A stretch of 16,638 nt of DNA. Origin: Bdellovibrionota bacterium. Its GTDB lineage: Bacteria > Bdellovibrionota > UBA1018 > UBA923. The translations under genes were made by a program, and so were the position numbers. The stretch spans positions 1 through 16,638 of the forward strand of contig JBFMCE010000085.1 in assembly GCA_040754655.1 (NCBI GenBank), read 5' to 3'. Of the stretch, positions 2,381-16,638 are shown piece by piece. Every line of letters starts with the position of its first letter. Position 1 is the first letter of the stretch. The notes beneath the pieces are model-generated. The model worked only from the letters and a program-made list of their open reading frames with translations, searched no databases and was not told where the DNA came from.

Positions 2381-4198
2381 CTACTCTACTGTCACCGATT
2401 TCGCGAGGTTTCTTGGCTTATCAACGTCAGTTCCTTTGAGAACCGCCGCATGATACGCCAAGAGCTGCGCCGGAATGGATGCCAAGAGGGTATCACTCCA
2501 ATCGCCAGCGAAGTCATACCCTAAAAAATAGTCTGACATCTTTTTAAGCTGCAAATCACCTTTCGTGCCGATGGCTACGATCCGTCCGCCTCTCGCCTTC
2601 ACTTCTTGAAGATTCGAGATTGTTTTCTCATAGAGCTCATCCCGAGGTGCAAGCACCACAACCGTCATGCTTGGTTCAACCATCGCGATGGGGCCATGCT
2701 TCAGTTCACCCGCAGGATATCCTTCTGCGTGGATGTAGCTGATCTCTTTAAGTTTCAGCGCGCCTTCCAAGGCGATGGGAAACAACCTGCCCCGAGCGAT
2801 GAACAAAAACCCCTTTGATTGGATGCACTCTTGAGCGACGTGTTGCACTTCGGCGGCCTGATCGAGCGCTCCTTGCAAAAGATGCGGAAGCTTTGAGAAA
2901 AAATGGATATCAAACGTTTCGTTGCGCCCGATATACTGGCCGATAAGCATCAAAACCAAGATCTGGGTGGTGAATGCTTTGGTCGAAGCGACTCCGATTT
3001 CAGGACCAGCCGCCGTGAATAACGTTGTTGAAGCTTCGCGAGAAAGCGTTGAGCCCCGTACGTTGCAGATCGCCGCCGTCATTGCGCCAGCGCGTTTCGC
3101 TTCTCGAAGAGCGGCTAGCGTATCCGCCGTCTCTCCGGATTGGCTAATCGCGATGACCAAGGTGTCAGGGCCCACTACGGGATCGCGGTACCGGTATTCG
3201 CTCGCAAGATCGACTTCAACTGGAATCCGGACTTCGCGTTCAAGGATGTACTTTCCGATCAAGGCGGCGTGCCATGCGGTTCCACAGGCGAGAAGTTGAA
3301 TTTTTGAAGCCTTCTTCATCATGGCCGCAAGAATTTCGAAACGAGCGGCCCCTGTATCGCGTTCGACGAGGTTGTCGAGAGTGTCAAGAACCGCCCTGGG
3401 CTGTTCATGAATCTCTTTGAGCATGTAGTGAGGAAAGCCCGCCTTATCCATGCTGCTCAAAGTCCAATCCAGCACAACCGGGCTTCGGGAAATCGGCTGC
3501 CTTGAATTTTGAGGCTCTCTGAGCGAGAAGATCGCAAACTTATCCCGTTCGCACACCACCATGTCTTCGTTCTCTAGAAATGTAACGGTATTGGTATGCT
3601 CTAGGATGGCCTGCGCATCGCTAGCCACAAAGGTGCCCTTGGCGTTTTGAGCGCGCGCAACCACAAGCGGAGTGCCATTGCGAATAGCCACGACCCGATC
3701 CGGAAATTCATCATTCACGACCACGACACTGCAAGAACCTTCAAGCCTCAAAAACGCGAGACGAACCGATTCCTCAAAACCAATGCCCTGCCTCCGATAC
3801 TCTTCCACGAGGTGCCCGAACAACTCGGAGTCGGTTTCACTCACCATGCGGTAACCTTTGGAAACCAGTTCTTCGCGAAGCGATTCGTAGTTTTCGATGA
3901 TTCCGTTATGAACCAATACGGTTGAGCCCGTTCGATGAGGGTGCGCATTCACAGCGTTGGGTTTCCCATGGGTTGCCCAGCGCGTATGTCCTACCCCAAT
4001 CGAACCCTTCAAGGGTTTTCCCTGATGGAGGCTCGCGATGTTCTCAAGTTTTCCTTCGGCCTTCAGGATTTCAAAGCCATGGCCATTTGCACAAGCGATG
4101 CCGGCCGAGTCATACCCTCGATATTCAAGCCGCTTTAGCCCTGCTATTAAAAAGTCTGCACAATCTTTTTCACCGACGTAGGCAATGATCCCGCACAT
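2381..4198 (-). CDS. glmS: Glutamine--fructose-6-phosphate aminotransferase (isomerizing)
   Basis: MCGI N-terminus (catalytic Cys), LEYRGYDSAG, GHTRWATHG, HNGIIEN, SQSGETADT, EGALKLKE, ELKHGP, C-terminal PRNLAKSVTVE. Confidence 0.99.
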   Translation of the reverse strand: MCGIIAYVGEKDCADFLIAGLKRLEYRGYDSAGIACANGHGFEILKAEGKLENIASLHQGKPLKGSIGVGHTRWATHGKPNAVNAHPHRTGSTVLVHNGIIENYESLREELVSKGYRMVSETDSELFGHLVEEYRRQGIGFEESVRLAFLRLEGSCSVVVVNDEFPDRVVAIRNGTPLVVARAQNAKGTFVASDAQAILEHTNTVTFLENEDMVVCERDKFAIFSLREPQNSRQPISRSPVVLDWTLSSMDKAGFPHYMLKEIHEQPRAVLDTLDNLVERDTGAARFEILAAMMKKASKIQLLACGTAWHAALIGKYILEREVRIPVEVDLASEYRYRDPVVGPDTLVIAISQSGETADTLAALREAKRAGAMTAAICNVRGSTLSREASTTLFTAAGPEIGVASTKAFTTQILVLMLIGQYIGRNETFDIHFFSKLPHLLQGALDQAAEVQHVAQECIQSKGFLFIARGRLFPIALEGALKLKEISYIHAEGYPAGELKHGPIAMVEPSMTVVVLAPRDELYEKTISNLQEVKARGGRIVAIGTKGDLQLKKMSDYFLGYDFAGDWSDTLLASIPAQLLAYHAAVLKGTDVDKPRNLAKSVTVE

Positions 4199-4459
4199 AA
4201 TTGATAAGCTCTAGTCCTTCTCTCTCAAACACTTGATGATAAAAATCGTAGTCTATTCAGCTCGCCCACAAAGAAGCAAGTGTGAAGTAAAGATCGCTCA
4301 AAAAAGCTTAATAATACCAATATCTTAAAAAAATAAACCAACCCCTTCTCACTTTAACTCTGGTTTCTACGCCGACCAGAAACCCAAACTCACCCGAAAC
4401 TTCCCTTGAATCCAACAATTGCTCAGCAATCTTTTTCTACAACGTGCGCAGGAGTTGTC

Positions 4460-4476
4460 TATAATAATATAGAGGT
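4460..4476 (+). promoter_or_regulatory. Putative sigma70 -10 box and ribosome-binding site of the PilZ gene
   Basis: TATAAT at 4460-4465 and GAGGT at 4472-4476, upstream of GTG at 4486. No convincing -35. Confidence 0.5.
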
Positions 4477-4485
4477 AAGTAGAAC

Positions 4486-4908
4486 GTGAGCCTAGACGCC
4501 TCCAAACAAAGTCCATCAGGTACTGGAACAAAAAAAGAAAATCCCGCTGATCGGCGCCAAGAAGGCCGCCGGGTTGTTCATGAGAAATGCAAAGTCATAC
4601 TCTCGATCGCTGACAATGGGGCATCCGGAACCGCTCCGATCTCTGGCGTTGTCACTGATATCAGCGCTAAAGGAATTGGAATCTTTAGCGAAGCCTTCCT
4701 CAACAACACGACCACCATCATGATCATCCTCAAAGGACGGCGCTTTGAACATGAGTTGCAAGCGAAGGTCGCCTGGTGCCGCCGCATTCCTACGACGGGC
4801 CGGATCATCAAGGCATCGCAGGCGTTGAACTGGAGAATGGGATTGATGTTCGACTTCCGGTCAGACGAAGAAAGAGCGCTCCTAGAGAAGCTCTCCGTAT
4901 CCTTGTAA
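4486..4908 (+). CDS. Single-domain PilZ protein (probable c-di-GMP receptor)
   Basis: RxxxR motif (DRRQEGR) and D/NxSxxG motif (DISAKG), followed by typical PilZ beta-strands (KVAWC, WRMGLMF). SD GAGGT precedes the GTG start. Confidence 0.88.
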   Translation: MSLDASKQSPSGTGTKKENPADRRQEGRRVVHEKCKVILSIADNGASGTAPISGVVTDISAKGIGIFSEAFLNNTTTIMIILKGRRFEHELQAKVAWCRRIPTTGRIIKASQALNWRMGLMFDFRSDEERALLEKLSVSL

Positions 4909-4921
4909 CAATAAACTTAAA

Positions 4922-6376
4922 CTACTTCCGTCGTTTGTACTTCTTAGCGTATCCTGGCTTCACGACTTGCCTTGTTCTCGCGATGACCAAAGAGTCTGGC
5001 TCGGAAACTGACTCCGTGACCGTGCTTCCCGAGGCGATATAAGTTCCATCTGCGATTTGAATCGGAGCCACAACTTGCGAATCACTTCCGACGAAGACAT
5101 CGTCTCCGATTATGGTTTGATGTTTTCGGCGCCCCTCCCGAACGGTGCCATCATAATTGCAGGTCACGAAACCACACCCCAAGTTCACGTTCGATCCGAT
5201 CTCGGCATCACCGATATAACTCAAGTGCGCCGCATTGGTGTGCGATCCTATGATCGATTCCTTCACTTCCACAAAATTCCCGACACGCACATGATCTTTC
5301 AATTGAGACCCTGGGCGAAGCTGCACCATGGGTCCAACGATGCATTCCTTGCCTATGATCGATTTCTCGGCAACTGTGGAATTACGAATCACGCTCGACT
5401 CGCCGATGGCCACCTCGGTCAAGTCGCAATGAGAACCGATCTGCACCCGATCTGCAATTTTTGAGCGACCATGAATCGAGGTAAAAGGCGCTATCGCACA
5501 GTCAGAGCCGAATTCGACTTGGGGGCCGATATACGTGTGGCGCGGTTCGGCTAAGAAAACGCCTGCCTGCATCAGCTTTTTTGCCGTCTTATAATAGAGG
5601 GTCTGCTGAGCAGCGGCCAACTCTTCCATATTGTTGACCCCAGCTAGAGTGTTGGGGTCATCGAATTGATACGCAAGGATTCTTTTCTTTTTCTTGTATG
5701 CATAGGAAAAGACGTCGGGGAGATAAAACTCTTGGGCCTTGTTCTTATTCTTCATCTGGCCCAAAGCGCCTTCAAGAGTCTCGCGGTCAAAGAGATAAAC
5801 CCCTCCATTGTATTCGCGGATCTTTCGCTGCGAAACGGTCGCATCCTTGTACTCTACGACCCCTACGAACTTCCTCGACGCCCGTAAAATTCGGCCGTAC
5901 TGCCCGGCATCATCCAAGGTTGCGGATGCAAGCGAAGCGACACTCTTGTTTTGCTGATGGGCTTCGAGAAAAGCCTCAAAGTCACTTGCAGAGAAAATGG
6001 GAAGATCTCCGTTGAAAACCGCTATGGTTCGAAAAGGAAGTTTTGTTTTCTGAAAACTCTCTAAAGCCAACTTTACCGCATGCCCTGTTCCCAACTGCTG
6101 CTCCTGGGTGGTGTAAATGACTGGCGTCTGGACTTTCGAAGATCCGCGCAACCCCTCGACCATTTGCTTGACCTGATCGCGGCCATGACCAATGACAATG
6201 TTGAAGCGAGAACCCTGGTAAGGCCGCAACGCCTGATCGAGCGCATCCAACAAAAGCGCAAGCATGGGTTCTCGGCAGACTTTATGCAAAACCTTCGGAG
6301 TTTGTGAACGCATGCGGGTGCCCAAACCAGCGGCCAGTATGATCACTCCCAAACTTCTGTCTAAAGAACGAGGCAT
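4922..6376 (-). CDS. glmU: Bifunctional UDP-N-acetylglucosamine pyrophosphorylase / glucosamine-1-phosphate N-acetyltransferase
   Basis: LAAGLGTRMRS, PKVLH, QLGTGHA, GDLP, YGRI, hexapeptide repeats, GNFVEVK, HLSYIGDA, CNYDG. Start moved to ATG 6376, which has GGAG upstream and removes the overlap with the MATE gene. Confidence 0.98.
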   Translation of the reverse strand: MPRSLDRSLGVIILAAGLGTRMRSQTPKVLHKVCREPMLALLLDALDQALRPYQGSRFNIVIGHGRDQVKQMVEGLRGSSKVQTPVIYTTQEQQLGTGHAVKLALESFQKTKLPFRTIAVFNGDLPIFSASDFEAFLEAHQQNKSVASLASATLDDAGQYGRILRASRKFVGVVEYKDATVSQRKIREYNGGVYLFDRETLEGALGQMKNKNKAQEFYLPDVFSYAYKKKKRILAYQFDDPNTLAGVNNMEELAAAQQTLYYKTAKKLMQAGVFLAEPRHTYIGPQVEFGSDCAIAPFTSIHGRSKIADRVQIGSHCDLTEVAIGESSVIRNSTVAEKSIIGKECIVGPMVQLRPGSQLKDHVRVGNFVEVKESIIGSHTNAAHLSYIGDAEIGSNVNLGCGFVTCNYDGTVREGRRKHQTIIGDDVFVGSDSQVVAPIQIADGTYIASGSTVTESVSEPDSLVIARTRQVVKPGYAKKYKRRK

Positions 6377-6442
6377 CGGCAATCTCCATGGATAAAGAGC
6401 TAACCAAGTTGTACCATTGCATTGGTTCAAGTAAAAGAAGAC

Positions 6443-7819
6443 ATGAGTTCAAGGATGAAGAGAAACCACGAAATCGTTTCGCTGATGAAACTAGCGCTTC
6501 CGGTCGCAACCGCGCATTTGGCTCACATGTCGATGCAGATTGTCGACACGATGTTCGTGGGGCGGGTCAGCGCCGAGGCGATCGGCGCAGTATCGGTCGG
6601 AAACGCCGTTTTCGCGGTCTTCATGGTGATGGGCATCGGGCTTTCACTTGGACTTGATTTCATCATCTCGCACGCTTTCGGCGCTGGCAAGCAAGACGAG
6701 TGCAACCGATCACTGATCCAATCGATTTATCTCTGCACGTTCGTATCTATTCCTGGCATAGGAGTGATGTACCTGGCCTCTGGCCTCTTCGAGTGGTTCG
6801 GAATCGAACCCCAGGTAGCGATACTCGCGAAGGGGTATCTCAGGATTCTTTCCTGGAGCTTATGGCTCGTTCTGATGTTCAATGCATTTCGCCAATATCT
6901 TCAAGCCATGGGCGTGGCCAATGCCGTGATGGTTATTATGGTGCTCGCAAATGTGCTGAACATTGCCGCCAACTGGGTTTTTGTTTTTGGGAAACTTGGC
7001 TTTCCGGCGCTCGGAGTGGAAGGCTCAGGGCTTGCGACGCTTCTCTCGCGCGTCTTCATGCTGCTTGCCATTCTTGCATACGTGGCACGCAGGGATAAAA
7101 AGTACAGCCTAGGCCTGCTTGCGACTTCGATGGAATTTTCACGAACCCGCATGATGAGGATCGTTGAGCTGGGTTTACCGGCAATGGGACAAGTCATGCT
7201 TGAAGTCGGCGTATTCGCACTCGCCACCCTTCTCGCGGGAAAACTGGGTTCGACGGTGCTAGCCGCTCATCAAATCGCGCTGCACATCGCAAGCCTCACG
7301 TTCATGGTGGGCATGGGCGTTTCAGCCGCCGCTGCTGTTCGCATTGGAAGCGCTTTGGGCCATGGAAACCAGGATCAGGCGATCAAGACGGGATGGACAG
7401 CCGTTGTTTGCGTCGCCTTACTCATGGGTGTCTTCGCGATTCTGATGTTTGCCTTGCGCGAGCCTTTGATGGGATTGTTCACTTCAGACCCTTTGGTGAT
7501 TGAGGCGGGTAAGGGCTTGCTCATTCTCGCAGCCTTCTTTCAGCTCTTTGATGGCACGCAGGTCGTTGGCGCCGGAATACTGAGGGGGATCGGGGAAACA
7601 AGAGCATCGATGTTCGCCAATCTCGTGGGCCATTGGTTTGTTGGACTACCCCTTGGGATAGGTCTTTGTTTTGGACTGGGCTTGGGCGCTCAAGGATTGT
7701 GGATTGGGCTTTCAACAGGGCTTATCTTTGTTTCTCTCGCGCTGATGATGGTTTGGAGAAAGAAAGTGCGGCGCATGCGCGCAACCTCTTTTGCGCTCGA
7801 GCCGCGACTCTCGCGTTAG
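6443..7819 (+). CDS. MATE family efflux transporter (NorM-like)
   Basis: About 12 TM helices, VDTMFVG, ISHAFGAG, FGKLGFPALGVEGSGLAT, LAAHQI, FQLFDGTQVV, GILRG. Start is ATG 6443 or 6455 rather than TTG 6422. Confidence 0.95.
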   Translation: MSSRMKRNHEIVSLMKLALPVATAHLAHMSMQIVDTMFVGRVSAEAIGAVSVGNAVFAVFMVMGIGLSLGLDFIISHAFGAGKQDECNRSLIQSIYLCTFVSIPGIGVMYLASGLFEWFGIEPQVAILAKGYLRILSWSLWLVLMFNAFRQYLQAMGVANAVMVIMVLANVLNIAANWVFVFGKLGFPALGVEGSGLATLLSRVFMLLAILAYVARRDKKYSLGLLATSMEFSRTRMMRIVELGLPAMGQVMLEVGVFALATLLAGKLGSTVLAAHQIALHIASLTFMVGMGVSAAAAVRIGSALGHGNQDQAIKTGWTAVVCVALLMGVFAILMFALREPLMGLFTSDPLVIEAGKGLLILAAFFQLFDGTQVVGAGILRGIGETRASMFANLVGHWFVGLPLGIGLCFGLGLGAQGLWIGLSTGLIFVSLALMMVWRKKVRRMRATSFALEPRLSR

Positions 7820-8499: not shown

Positions 8500-9153
8500 T
8501 TAAAGAAGGTCGCGTTCACACGCGCCGAGGTGCGATGCCTTACCGGTTTTGACCACCCTTACGCCTTCAAGAGCATTTAAGATCGCCCAAGGATCCAAGA
8601 CCAAACGGTAGTTCAATTGATGGGCTTTCCCACCTATAGACAAATCAGCCCTCGAATCATAACCAAGCGAGATCCCTTGTTCGAAAATGCCTTTGTAACG
8701 AATTGAATTGAGTGCTTGATTGAGTTCTTGAGGCAAATCAAAAACAAGCTTGGTTTGATCTCCCCCTACGGAACTCAGCGAAGCGTAGGTACGATTTTTG
8801 ACTTCTGGATAGCGACCAATCCACTCGATAAGCTCGTTGGCCAAGTGGGGATCAGCGAGCACAACTACGGTATAAAACTTCTTCAAAGACAAAAAACCGC
8901 TTCTACTTTTTACAACAAGGCCAGTGGGCAATCCTTTTCCAGTTTCTTTTAGAAGCTTTTCAAAAACATTTGAAACCAGCGTACTTTCTTCCAAATAACT
9001 CACCTTGGACGGATTGGCTAACTTCAGCTCTAATAGGACGGGCTCATTTTTGGCTCGATCTTCTGCTTCTTTGGGATCGCCGCTGTAGGCGCTAAATGAA
9101 GCGACCATCCCAAGTGAAGCTAAGACTAAAAGGAAGTACCCTTGTAGACTCAT
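8500..9153 (-). CDS. Hypothetical exported protein (217 aa)
   Basis: Long ORF filling the dksA-lon gap, with an N-terminal hydrophobic signal-like segment (YFLLVLASLGMVASFSAYS). ATG 9153 is preferred because ATG 9165 overlaps the -10 box. No recognisable domain. Confidence 0.75.
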   Translation of the reverse strand: MSLQGYFLLVLASLGMVASFSAYSGDPKEAEDRAKNEPVLLELKLANPSKVSYLEESTLVSNVFEKLLKETGKGLPTGLVVKSRSGFLSLKKFYTVVVLADPHLANELIEWIGRYPEVKNRTYASLSSVGGDQTKLVFDLPQELNQALNSIRYKGIFEQGISLGYDSRADLSIGGKAHQLNYRLVLDPWAILNALEGVRVVKTGKASHLGACERDLL

Positions 9154-9163
9154 AGCGCAATGC

Positions 9164-9190
9164 ATTATAATTTATGCCCAATTCTGTCAA
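9164..9190 (-). promoter_or_regulatory. Consensus sigma70 promoter of the orphan exported gene
   Basis: Minus strand reads TTGACA (9190-9185), 15 nt, TATAAT (9169-9164). Both hexamers are perfect but the spacer is short. Confidence 0.6.
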
Positions 9191-14301: not shown

Positions 14302-14331
14302 TTGTAGTTTGCGCGCGCCTCCTGCTACACT
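14302..14331 (+). promoter_or_regulatory. Putative sigma70 promoter of the cheY-like operon (extended -10)
   Basis: TTGTAG (14302-14307), 18 nt, TACACT (14326-14331) preceded by TGn. SD AGGAGG at 14339-14344. Confidence 0.5.
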
Positions 14332-14356
14332 TGCTTGTAGGAGGCAAGAGAAGCCT

Positions 14357-14770
14357 GTGGCAAAAACAGCCCTAATCGTTGACGACATCGCATTCGCGAG
14401 GAAATTGATCAAAGACATCCTGACTGCCGCCAAATACACGGTGATCGCGGAAGCCGCGGATGGAGACGAGGCGGTGAAGCTTTTTGAGAAGTACAAACCG
14501 GACTTCGTGACCATGGACATCGTCATGCCACACAAGGGCGGCATCGAAGCCACCAGACAGATCCTCGACCGCAACAAAGACGCCCGCATCATCATTGTTT
14601 CAGCGATGGGCCATGAACAGATCCTCATGGATGCCATCAATGCCGGAGCCAGGGACTATTTATTGAAACCCTTTTCACCCGACGATTTGCTGAAAGCCGT
14701 CGAAAAGGTTTTGAAAGAAGAAGACCAAGAGCCAGGCGCGTCAAAAGGAGTACCTCATGGAGCACCTTAA
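14357..14770 (+). CDS. Single-domain response regulator, CheY-like
   Basis: LIVDD, phosphoacceptor VTMDIVMP, IVSAMG, LKPF. Resembles Bacillus/Thermotoga-type CheY. GTG start at 14357 follows AGGAGG. Confidence 0.93.
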   Translation: MAKTALIVDDIAFARKLIKDILTAAKYTVIAEAADGDEAVKLFEKYKPDFVTMDIVMPHKGGIEATRQILDRNKDARIIIVSAMGHEQILMDAINAGARDYLLKPFSPDDLLKAVEKVLKEEDQEPGASKGVPHGAP

Positions 14771-15209
14771 ACAGAACTTGTTCCCCAACCAATTCGACTT
14801 TTTCCACTTGGGGCGCATTGAATCTATTCGCACGAAATGGCAGCTGAAAAAACCGCCTTACAGCCCGTTCATAGTGCTCTTCCGGTTCAGCGGAGATGAA
14901 CTTGGCTATGGGCTGGTTGCGTTTGACCGGACGCCTGCAAACATCGATGAGGAGTCGATGGCGCTTGAGATCGCCAATATCCTCACGTCGAAGTTCGCCA
15001 CTCAACTGGCTGACGCGGCGAATGGGTCGGTGCAAATCTCGCCTCCCGAGGTTGTGAGAGAAAACGATCAAAAACACCGTTATTTGATGGGGCTGCTCAA
15101 TAGCTCTTCAGGCACGGAGATCGCTCAAAAGAACTACCGTTTTGTTCAGAAGAATCAAACTTTAAGATTGGCCATGGTGTACCTGCCCTCGCAGACAGGC
15201 CAAACGTAA
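14757..15209 (+). CDS. CheX/CheC-like phosphatase-family protein
   Basis: FSGDELGYGLVAF beta-hairpin, catalytic ExxN helix (SMALEIANIL), ISPPEVV. Overlaps the CheY-like gene and has SD AAGGAG. Confidence 0.7.
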   Translation: MEHLKQNLFPNQFDFFHLGRIESIRTKWQLKKPPYSPFIVLFRFSGDELGYGLVAFDRTPANIDEESMALEIANILTSKFATQLADAANGSVQISPPEVVRENDQKHRYLMGLLNSSSGTEIAQKNYRFVQKNQTLRLAMVYLPSQTGQT

Positions 15210-15235
15210 CGCATTTAAGGCAAGGAGCGCCCCCA

Positions 15236-15586
15236 ATGATCAAGCTCGCGTTTCAACTCTTCAAGATACTCGTCATTGCCATCGTAACCTTGCTCATCGG
15301 GCAAATCCCGGTAGGGCAAAAACGAATCAGCGATCATGTCTGGGATATGACCCGCTCGAAGTTCGTTCAAGTACCCATACATTGGATCTCGCAACGCTTT
15401 GATTTCAGTGATGGGAAAACGGGCCAGGGCAAGCTCGCCAAAAAGAACGGCCGCACCGAAGACCTGAACTCGCGCTCAAGACCTCCAGCCACGGCCGATT
15501 CAGAATATGGCGAGTCTGATCAAGGTCGGCTCAGCGGTTTGTTGAAACAACAACCCGAACCTGAAGACGACGATCAAGACGAATAA
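15236..15586 (+). CDS. Hypothetical membrane-anchored/exported protein with low-complexity charged tail
   Basis: SD AAGGAG, N-terminal hydrophobic helix (ILVIAIVTLLIG), acidic C-terminus. Co-oriented 26 nt after the CheX-like gene. Confidence 0.75.
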   Translation: MIKLAFQLFKILVIAIVTLLIGQIPVGQKRISDHVWDMTRSKFVQVPIHWISQRFDFSDGKTGQGKLAKKNGRTEDLNSRSRPPATADSEYGESDQGRLSGLLKQQPEPEDDDQDE

Positions 15587-15608
15587 GAAAGCTTATCTCA
15601 AGGGCAGA

Positions 15609-15824
15609 TCAGCCGCCTACATTCGTGCCAGTCGAAACAACGCCTCTTCTGCCGGAATTGCCGTGGGCTGCGGGCAATCGCCTATTATCACGGCCATCGC
15701 AATCAGCCTTACTCAGAAGCCTGGCATTATCACGGATCTCGCTATCTTCGGCCCAAGCGGTGCCCAACAACGCTGGGGTTACCACAAACAGACTCATCAA
15801 GAGCATCAATATTCGGATCTTCAT
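15609..15824 (-). CDS. Small secreted peptide B (71 aa, Sec signal, single Cys)
   Basis: Strong SD GAGGAG upstream of ATG. Signal MKIRILMLLMSLFVVTPALLGTAWA ends in AxA. A sigma54-type promoter lies upstream. Confidence 0.8.
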   Translation of the reverse strand: MKIRILMLLMSLFVVTPALLGTAWAEDSEIRDNARLLSKADCDGRDNRRLPAAHGNSGRRGVVSTGTNVGG

Positions 15825-15923
15825 CGCTTCTACTCCTCTTCAACATCAACTTTGAACAGCTTCAACTCTCACAGTCACATCAACAACTACTCCTGCCTTG
15901 GAGTGCTCTCTAGAGAACAGTAA

Positions 15924-15940
15924 AGCAAGGCCAGTGCCAG
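15924..15940 (-). promoter_or_regulatory. sigma54 (RpoN) -24/-12 promoter upstream of peptide B
   Basis: Minus strand CTGGCAC-TGGCC-TTGCT matches TGGCAC-N5-TTGCW with exact spacing. Confidence 0.8.
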
Positions 15941-16149
15941 ATCTGGGTCTTCAGGACACAGGCCAGGCTTCTCCACCGAGGTGTTGCAGTGACACGGCTT
16001 CCGTCAAAAAATTTTACAGCAGTTTTGGAAAGACAAGCGTGGGCATGTGAAGCAGAAAGTTTGCTTCGAGGATTCATGAAAAGTGCGTGGAAATGCACCG
16101 AAAATACTCCGATGCAAGAGATCACAAACTCAAACGATCTAAGATCGTC

Positions 16150-16356
16150 TTATCTCGCGGAACGGCTGGTCGTAGCGCGGCGCCGAAGGCTCTTGCCTTC
16201 TTTTCCGTCGTCCACGCCAAATTCCTTGTTTACGACGTTTGCAGACACCGTTTCGCAGTAGTCTTGCTCAGAGGCTTCATCGTCATCATCTGTCGCAAAA
16301 GCCTTGGGAACGGCAAGCACGCCTAAGATCAGCAGAACCATCATCATCAACTTCAT
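16150..16356 (-). CDS. Small secreted peptide A (68 aa, Sec signal, single Cys)
   Basis: SD GAGGAG 5 nt before ATG. Signal MKLMMMVLLILGVLAVPKAFA ends in AxA. A sigma54-type promoter lies upstream. Confidence 0.82.
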   Translation of the reverse strand: MKLMMMVLLILGVLAVPKAFATDDDDEASEQDYCETVSANVVNKEFGVDDGKEGKSLRRRATTSRSAR

Positions 16357-16398
16357 ACCTACTCCTCAAAAAACACTAGTTCTCTAGGAGCTATGTTT

Positions 16399-16414
16399 TG
16401 CAAGGCAAATGCCA
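16399..16414 (-). promoter_or_regulatory. sigma54 (RpoN) -24/-12 promoter upstream of peptide A
   Basis: Minus strand TGGCAT-TTGCC-TTGCA matches TGGCAY-N5-TTGCW with exact spacing. Confidence 0.8.
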
Positions 16415-16538
16415 CGGCACAACCTCGTAATTTTATTTATTTTTACCGATTTTCGCTTCAGAGAGAGGGTTTCCGCATTTTTTTCAGATGTAAAAAAGTT
16501 AGTCACTTAGAGGTTTAAAAACCAAAGGCGCCCCTAAA

Positions 16539-16555
16539 TTGACTTTACAAGTCAA
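16539..16555. promoter_or_regulatory. Perfect palindromic operator-like site
   Basis: TTGACTT-TAC-AAGTCAA in an AT-rich divergent intergenic region. Confidence 0.6.
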
Positions 16556-16612
16556 CTAATTTTATTTATAAAGATCCATTAGTTTTTGCCTTAAACCCAA
16601 GGAGTCGAACTC

Positions 16613-16638
16613 GTGAAACGCACTAAACCTTCTATTCT
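16613..16638 (+). CDS. Start of an unidentified CDS truncated by the window end (MKRTKPSI...)
   Basis: SD AAGGAG at 16599-16604 followed 8 nt later by GTG AAA CGC. The frame is open to the end of the window. Confidence 0.5.

Follow-up and report, generated by a model that had tools for sequence, protein, structure and literature searches.

The window analysed here is a 16,638-bp stretch of DNA, the whole of contig C85 (GenBank JBFMCE010000085.1) of a Bdellovibrionota bacterium whose 3.78-Mb genome assembly comprises 196 contigs and is 90% complete. Close to one of its ends it carries two small minus-strand open reading frames (ORFs), ORF-A (16150..16356) and ORF-B (15609..15824). We interpret them, with a probability of about 0.7, as separately transcribed sigma-54 genes for small, Sec-exported, disordered proteins with a single cysteine, which would be the Bacteriovorax-type counterparts of the small proteins of the hit locus and would most likely work in the periplasm on a Bd0109-like protein and the Tad pilus apparatus. 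In Bdellovibrio, the hit locus is a classic genetic switch, so far without explanation, that decides between prey-dependent and prey-independent life. Chance does not account for the pair, which is real. An earlier note on this DNA, made from its letters alone, had proposed an undescribed peptide system; it belongs instead with the hit-locus small proteins, a kind already published, and by gene order goes with the Bd0108-type proteins and BMS0183/BMS0184 as these are described in PMC3526173 and PMC4267844. We speak of counterparts because of the gene order conserved in relatives, by which ORF-B would stand in place of the 66-amino-acid (aa) ORF of the published hit small RNA (sRNA) and ORF-A in a Bd0108-like place further upstream.

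Two small proteins with a predicted signal peptide and one cysteine

The two genes code for proteins of 68 aa (ORF-A) and 71 aa (ORF-B), both within the range of about 60–100 aa and both with a predicted cleavable Sec signal peptide. Signal peptides were called with a crude home-made rule for n-, h- and c-regions, used in place of SignalP, which recovers the published start of mature Bd0108 at residue 24 (PMC4267844). By this rule, ORF-A is cut after a signal peptide of 21 aa ending in AFA (next residue T) and ORF-B after one of 25 aa ending in AWA (next residue E), leaving mature parts of 47 and 46 aa. Each mature part has an acidic N-terminus, a tail rich in R, S, T and G, and exactly one cysteine amid charged residues, at mature positions 13 and 17 (DYCE in ORF-A; KADC, or ADCD, in ORF-B). 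All of this agrees with the earlier note, which had read from the sequence two genes of these lengths and of common architecture, Sec signals ending in AxA, and a single cysteine beside acidic residues. Its further remark that the two have little sequence identity also holds, as no BLASTP alignment between them appears at E<=100; nor is homology detected between the ORF-A and ORF-B families (hhalign probability 0.9%, no BLASTP alignment).

The note had also called the C-terminal half of each peptide probably disordered. AlphaFold2 models have a mean predicted local distance difference test score of 52.5 for ORF-A and 56.4 for ORF-B, with a predicted template modelling score of 0.20 for both. 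The signal-peptide helix is alone modelled with any confidence, and ORF-A has no secondary structure past residue 17. Both mature parts are accordingly predicted to be intrinsically disordered, as for the hit-locus small proteins.

In codon usage, ORF-A scores 0.279, the highest of its six frames and clearly coding on a scale where in-frame chunks average 0.209 (standard deviation 0.091) and the 95th percentile of out-of-frame ones is 0.063. An identical 9-mer, GAGGAGTAG, precedes both ATGs as a strong ribosome-binding site, at 16359..16367 on the minus strand for ORF-A and at 15830-15838 within the leader of ORF-B (15825..15913, minus strand). Neither protein, nor the neighbouring ORF-C, belongs to a Pfam or NCBIfam family. 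Relatives of ORF-B, weak but genuine, exist in three genomes that belong to a single genus of its own family (E 1.4e-6 to 6.2e-5), and a profile of its type matches five of the 10 genomes of the family; a word-index homologue search returned only the self-match, and its top score in the ESM Atlas, 0.83, is at chance level.

Predicted sigma-54 promoters

The -24/-12 pattern TGGCAYNNNNNTTGCW (TGGCAY-N5-TTGCW) occurs exactly twice in the window, once upstream of each gene and on its strand, where shuffled windows hold a mean of 0.06 occurrences and none of 200 reaches two. The box of ORF-A, TGGCATTTGCCTTGCA, lies at 16399..16414 and that of ORF-B, TGGCACTGGCCTTGCT, at 15924..15939, both on the minus strand. 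Sigma-54 transcription usually starts 12 nucleotides (nt) from the -12 GC, and because of this usual distance the starts would fall at about 16388 and 15913, giving leaders of about 32 and 89 nt. No sigma-70-like promoter was found in 15200-16638. To judge by these motifs, ORF-A and ORF-B are each probably a separate sigma-54 transcription unit.

The genome has the corresponding machinery. It encodes a single rpoN, whose absence the earlier note would have taken as a refutation, together with 18 genes with strong matches to Sigma54_activat (E<=1e-56) and 11 GAFTGA motifs; neither rpoN nor any sigma-54 activator gene lies inside the window. A genome-wide scan for the motif, part of what the note had called for, returned 50 matches to the sigma-54 pattern, compared with four for a backwards control. 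The note's individual promoter and strong ribosome site for each gene have likewise stood up. Among relatives, when the regions upstream of ORF-B-type genes from 10 genomes are aligned, the columns of TGGC and TTGC alone show no variation; a further genome (G002) was excluded from this alignment, its box sitting 373 nt upstream.

Gene order and comparison with the hit locus

On its other flank the pair is followed by a module that recalls the hit locus. ORF-C (15236..15586, plus strand) codes for a 116-aa protein with an N-terminal membrane helix, converges on ORF-B and is the positional counterpart of Bd0103. Upstream of it, on the same strand, lie a CheC/CheX-like gene (14757..15209; PF04509, 9.5e-8) and a gene for a stand-alone CheY-like receiver (14309..14770; PF00072, 1.8e-29). 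The segment 14309-15586 thus has the convergent small membrane protein and the CheY-like receiver that form the same flank in a Bdellovibrio genome of the same phylum (G359), where the order is CpaC, Tad ATPase, TadB, Bd0109, Bd0108, the 66-aa ORF, and then the convergent Bd0103 and CheY genes.

Eight of the family's nine other genomes have a relative of ORF-C, as do both genomes of a second family. In all ten, a CheY-like gene, a CheC-like gene and ORF-C come first, and a small signal-peptide ORF then converges on them; it has one mature cysteine, mostly in the context K-x-[DE]-C. One metagenome contig has the same arrangement. Further upstream on the strand of the small ORF there is often another small signal-peptide ORF, and sometimes there are two. 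In four genomes (G001, G002, G006 and G023), a Tad ATPase gene, a TadB-like gene and a gene for a 560-aa secreted YD-repeat protein precede the small ORFs. A place directly behind a Bd0109-type gene that closes a Tad operon is seen in relatives; in the present assembly these genes are on separate contigs.

Bd0108 is described as a secreted disordered protein of 101 aa that binds the RHS/YD protein Bd0109, and its gene as co-transcribed with tad genes (PMC3818213, PMC4267844). Like ORF-A and ORF-B, it is small, has a Sec signal peptide, is disordered, bears cysteine and has no Pfam family. Its gene comes after a YD-repeat gene where the Tad operon ends, and on the other side it is flanked by genes for a small membrane protein and a CheY-like protein, as on the window's flank. 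However, bd0108 starts 15 nt after bd0109 and lacks a sigma-54 box of its own, whereas each of the window genes has one. Closer in format is the tandem of 67-aa genes BMS0183/BMS0184 found at the hit place in Bacteriovorax marinus SJ (PMC3526173, PMC4267844). Compared by their published description only, these form a tandem pair of about 67 aa with signal peptides, in the same bacterial class, and lie beside a Bd0109 homologue. Their mature parts are reported to have little or no similarity to Bd0108 and no significant homology (PMC4267844). Promoters, a cysteine pattern or a CheY flank do not figure in this description as consulted here. The B. marinus pair is called a duplication in print, whereas ORF-A and ORF-B have no detectable homology.

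The organism studied here has its own Tad block on another contig, C121, which encodes, in order, a 523-aa CpaC-like protein, a 722-aa ATPase, a 293-aa TadB-like protein and a 560-aa Bd0109-like protein (5162-6844). The last combines DUF6531 with RHS repeats; along its full length it shares 35% identity with Bd0109 of the Bdellovibrio genome (E 3e-98). No sigma-54 box was found on C121. Right after the Bd0109-like gene comes a 67-aa signal-peptide ORF with three cysteines (C121:6943-7146, plus strand; L051 3279-3482), followed by a convergent 511-aa gene of no recognised type. The Bd0109-like protein itself has three cysteines in total, two of them vicinal (NECCG, residues 388-389), and such a vicinal pair is present in 39 of 47 aligned Bd0109-type proteins. 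A pairing of the single cysteine of the small proteins with this vicinal pair was considered but is not supported, as Bd0109 of the Bdellovibrio genome lacks it although a single-cysteine ORF is present there.

An open reading frame within the hit sRNA interval

A 261-nt non-coding RNA has been reported at positions 96455-96716 of Bdellovibrio HD100, downstream of bd0108, with raised levels in bd0108 mutants (PMC3818213). The coordinates of the Bdellovibrio genome used here agree with those published for HD100: the reverse primer of that study matches it at 96633-96652, and its Bd0108 is letter-for-letter the public 'hit' sequence. Within the sRNA interval lies a 66-aa ORF (G359:C1:96483-96683; L141 1351-1551, minus strand) with a signal peptide and one cysteine, and both published sRNA primers fall inside it. 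Upstream of it are, in order, a hairpin after bd0108, the sequence TGGCAC-N5-ATGCA and an AAGGAG ribosome site. The box is invariant in four genomes of the genus, its -12 element having one mismatch to TTGCW, and the 197-nt spacer that includes it is 96% conserved across them. Over the same four genomes the ORF has accumulated 12-15 synonymous and 1-3 non-synonymous changes, for a ratio of non-synonymous to synonymous rates (dN/dS) of 0.02-0.04, beside 0.05-0.08 for Bd0108. The forward sRNA primer, present in the Bdellovibrio genome, has no match in 116 genomes of this organism's order.

The 66-aa ORF resembles ORF-B in being the last before a convergent membrane-protein gene and in its signal peptide, single cysteine and AAGGAG site; it differs in being published as part of a non-coding RNA and in having a lipobox-like cysteine, which ORF-B has not. 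Annotation pipelines already call it a hypothetical protein in several strains, with no original HD100 accession listed. In the main text of the literature consulted, which includes PMC3818213, PMC4267844, PMC3526173, PMC11209729, PMC11323537 and PMC13689555, we found no statement that the hit sRNA codes for a protein and none that sigma-54 acts at the hit locus. The invariant -24/-12 boxes, the single mature cysteine in 88 of 98 such proteins of the class and the 66-aa ORF with its sigma-54-like box inside the published sRNA were not found in this literature.

Small proteins downstream of Bd0109-type genes across the class

A survey of the class returned 79 Bd0109-type loci, of which 66 were kept after excluding seven in which the locus ended within the match and six with less than 400 nt downstream. 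Small signal-peptide ORFs lie directly downstream in 60 of these 66 loci, one in 30 of them, two in 22 and three in eight; the loci are related to one another, so that the counts overstate independence. Exactly one mature cysteine is present in 88 of the 98 downstream ORFs (none in one, two to five in nine), in line with the cysteine conservation that the earlier note had wished to see checked. Under that rule, the organism's own genome has 831 small signal-peptide-like ORFs, and exactly one mature cysteine is found in 248 of them. A sigma-54-like box lies within 170 nt upstream of 49 of the 98 downstream ORFs, compared with six of the 831 background ORFs, and ORF-A and ORF-B themselves account for two of these six. 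The mature parts are rich in A, S, G, K, T, E and P and highly diverged, with a median cysteine position at mature residue 17. BLASTP sorts 107 mature sequences into 73 clusters, 61 of which have a single cysteine throughout.

Metagenome scans for close relatives of this organism returned none with ORF-C alone and one distant contig with an alignment. Because no close enough relative was found, selection was measured on ORF-A and ORF-B types in relatives. Within one genus, dN/dS is 0.23-0.28 for the ORF-B type and 0.13-0.22 for the ORF-A type, with 0.14 for ORF-C in the same pair of genomes, and of the six frames the annotated one gives the lowest dN/dS. The genes of these relatives are under purifying selection.

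Proposed mode of action and significance

We propose that an activator ATPase bound upstream would open each of the otherwise silent sigma-54 promoters, and that the resulting short mRNAs would be translated from their strong ribosome sites. Sec and signal peptidase I would then release disordered proteins of about 46 aa into the periplasm. By analogy with Bd0108, the mature proteins would most likely bind and tune the Bd0109-type protein and the pilus apparatus; alternatively, or in addition, they might act on the adjacent module of ORF-C, CheC and CheY. The single cysteine suggests a redox or disulfide step.

More speculatively, the last small gene of the hit locus might define an undescribed class across the Bdellovibrionota, made of secreted, disordered, single-cysteine proteins gated by sigma-54 and its activators and including both ORF-B and the 66-aa ORF. 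Together with the CheY-like, CheC-like and Bd0103-like genes, it would form a signalling module downstream of Bd0108 and Bd0109 that helps set the switch between attack and growth. This proposal is tentative, and we think it more probably wrong than right. If true, the rise of the 'sRNA' in bd0108 mutants would be the activator-driven induction of a secreted protein, and not riboregulation. For the window alone, the outcome is a tidy annotation of two orphan genes; for the hit locus, a sigma-54/activator input, a single cysteine conserved in partners that otherwise cannot be aligned and a coding 'hit sRNA' would make the question of its switch directly testable.

Weighing the alternatives

Several observations weigh against assigning ORF-A and ORF-B to the hit-locus proteins. 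In this assembly the pair (C85) and the Bd0109-like gene (C121) are not adjacent, and no overlap was found between the end of C85 and the ends of other contigs. BLASTP at E<=1e-3 links the mature parts, which are singletons, neither to Bd0108 nor to the 66-aa ORF; ORF-C matches Bd0103 by position only (BLASTP E 0.44, not significant); and Bd0108 differs from the pair in its length of 101 aa and its CXXC. ORF-A has no relative below E 0.05 in 60 related genomes, and a full HMMER search of 1.84 billion representatives returned only itself. ORF-B has a borderline codon-usage score (0.077), with 0.158 for the same-phase antisense frame. In at least three genomes (G005, G015 and that of the metagenome contig), an ORF-B-type gene adjoins ORF-C, CheC and CheY apart from Bd0109, which in G005 and G015 shares its contig but is several kb away; the partner of ORF-B may therefore not be Bd0109.

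This last arrangement, which apparently also holds for the present genome, would fit an explanation in which ORF-A and ORF-B are small periplasmic, sigma-54-controlled proteins of the CheY-like, CheC-like and ORF-C signalling genes, with no tie to Bd0109 or the pilus and with a merely historical adjacency to the hit locus. In favour of the same explanation, a sigma-54 box on the last small ORF tends to co-occur with a convergent CheY-like gene within 3 kb: among 49 loci, both are present in 19, only the box in four, only the CheY gene in two and neither in 24. These loci, however, are not independent, the modules are contiguous in most genomes searched, including the genus Bdellovibrio, and CheY and CheC are cytoplasmic. 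We consider this explanation unlikely. It is distinctly improbable that the pair encodes precursors of released signals or prey-directed effectors, such as pheromones, bacteriocins or products akin to ribosomally synthesised and post-translationally modified peptides (RiPPs). The products are predicted to be small, exported, tightly switched and fast-evolving, as such precursors would be. Their leader, however, is a Sec signal peptide and not of the RiPP or double-glycine type, and the low-complexity mature parts retain only one cysteine. As the earlier note had observed, no modifying enzyme or immunity gene is seen in the window, and neither these nor a dedicated transporter or a receptor kinase appear there or in the listed loci of relatives. 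Among the roles that the note had offered, that of envelope or pilus regulators is the best fit, and the pheromone or RiPP role finds no support, for want of such partner genes.

That one or both ORFs go untranslated, their transcripts acting as small RNAs, or are chance ORFs, is very improbable. The description of the Bdellovibrio counterpart as a non-coding sRNA (PMC3818213) and the borderline codon score of ORF-B lend this idea some support. Against it, a signal peptide, a strong ribosome site and a single cysteine have been kept across dozens of lineages whose sequences cannot be aligned, and dN/dS in relatives is 0.02-0.28, lowest in the sense frame of the six. Moreover, Rfam searches at E<=1 gave only sub-threshold chance matches with no family over threshold, and the leader of ORF-B has no significant RNA fold (z -0.47). 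Finally, it is scarcely credible that the pair are small lipoproteins lipidated on their single cysteine. The 66-aa protein of Bdellovibrio is automatically named 'Lipoprotein' in one source, and it and four others fit a PROSITE-like lipobox rule; yet these are five of 103, and we rejected the idea for ORF-A and ORF-B, as neither fits the rule, their cysteines being residues 13 and 17 of the mature parts and surrounded by charged residues. The assignment to the hit-locus small proteins remains the one we favour.

Candidate regulator sites and other features

Upstream regions of relatives are enriched in two further motifs. The first, TGTCTAA/TTAGACA, is found in 18 of 49 such regions, frequently in the form of a dyad (shuffles: mean 0.75, maximum 4). 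The second, TGTGTC, is found in 12 of the 49 no more than 30 nt before the box (shuffles: mean 0.31), and in 11 a gap of 4 nt separates the two. The upstream regions of the window hold only look-alikes of the dyads. For ORF-A, the palindrome TTGACTT-GTA-AAGTCAA (16539..16555), about 130 nt upstream of the -24 box, is by resemblance a candidate activator site. For ORF-B, the region 15955..16018 (minus strand) contains TGTGTC at 15955-15960 and the dyad-like TGTAAAATTTTTTGACG at 16002-16018 as candidate regulator sites; the gap from TGTGTC to the box is 15 nt here, compared with the 4 nt of the 11 relatives. Right after the stop of ORF-A, a hairpin (16132..16150, minus strand; z -1.41) is a weak terminator candidate, not flagged in the promoter scan of 15200-16638.

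The leader of ORF-B contains GTTGA repeats (AGTTGAAGTTGATGTTGA) just 5' of the ribosome site, and the same repeats occupy this place in the leaders of ORF-B-type genes at four other loci (L019, L020, L021 and L044). Elsewhere in the genome, many of the 50 sigma-54 boxes stand before ORFs whose starts resemble those of signal peptides or lipoproteins, which suggests a large set of exported proteins in a sigma-54 regulon. Between lon and a dksA-like gene, a 221-aa ORF (8500-9165, minus strand) matches no family in Pfam or NCBIfam. Where the contig ends (16612-16638, plus strand), AAGGAG followed by GTG opens an ORF that is divergent from ORF-A and runs off the contig. In G005 (L044, G005:C5:3000-11000), glmS, a PilZ gene and a glmU-like gene stand directly beside the ORF-B-type gene, and the same trio is present in the window at 2381-6430, about 9 kb from ORF-B.

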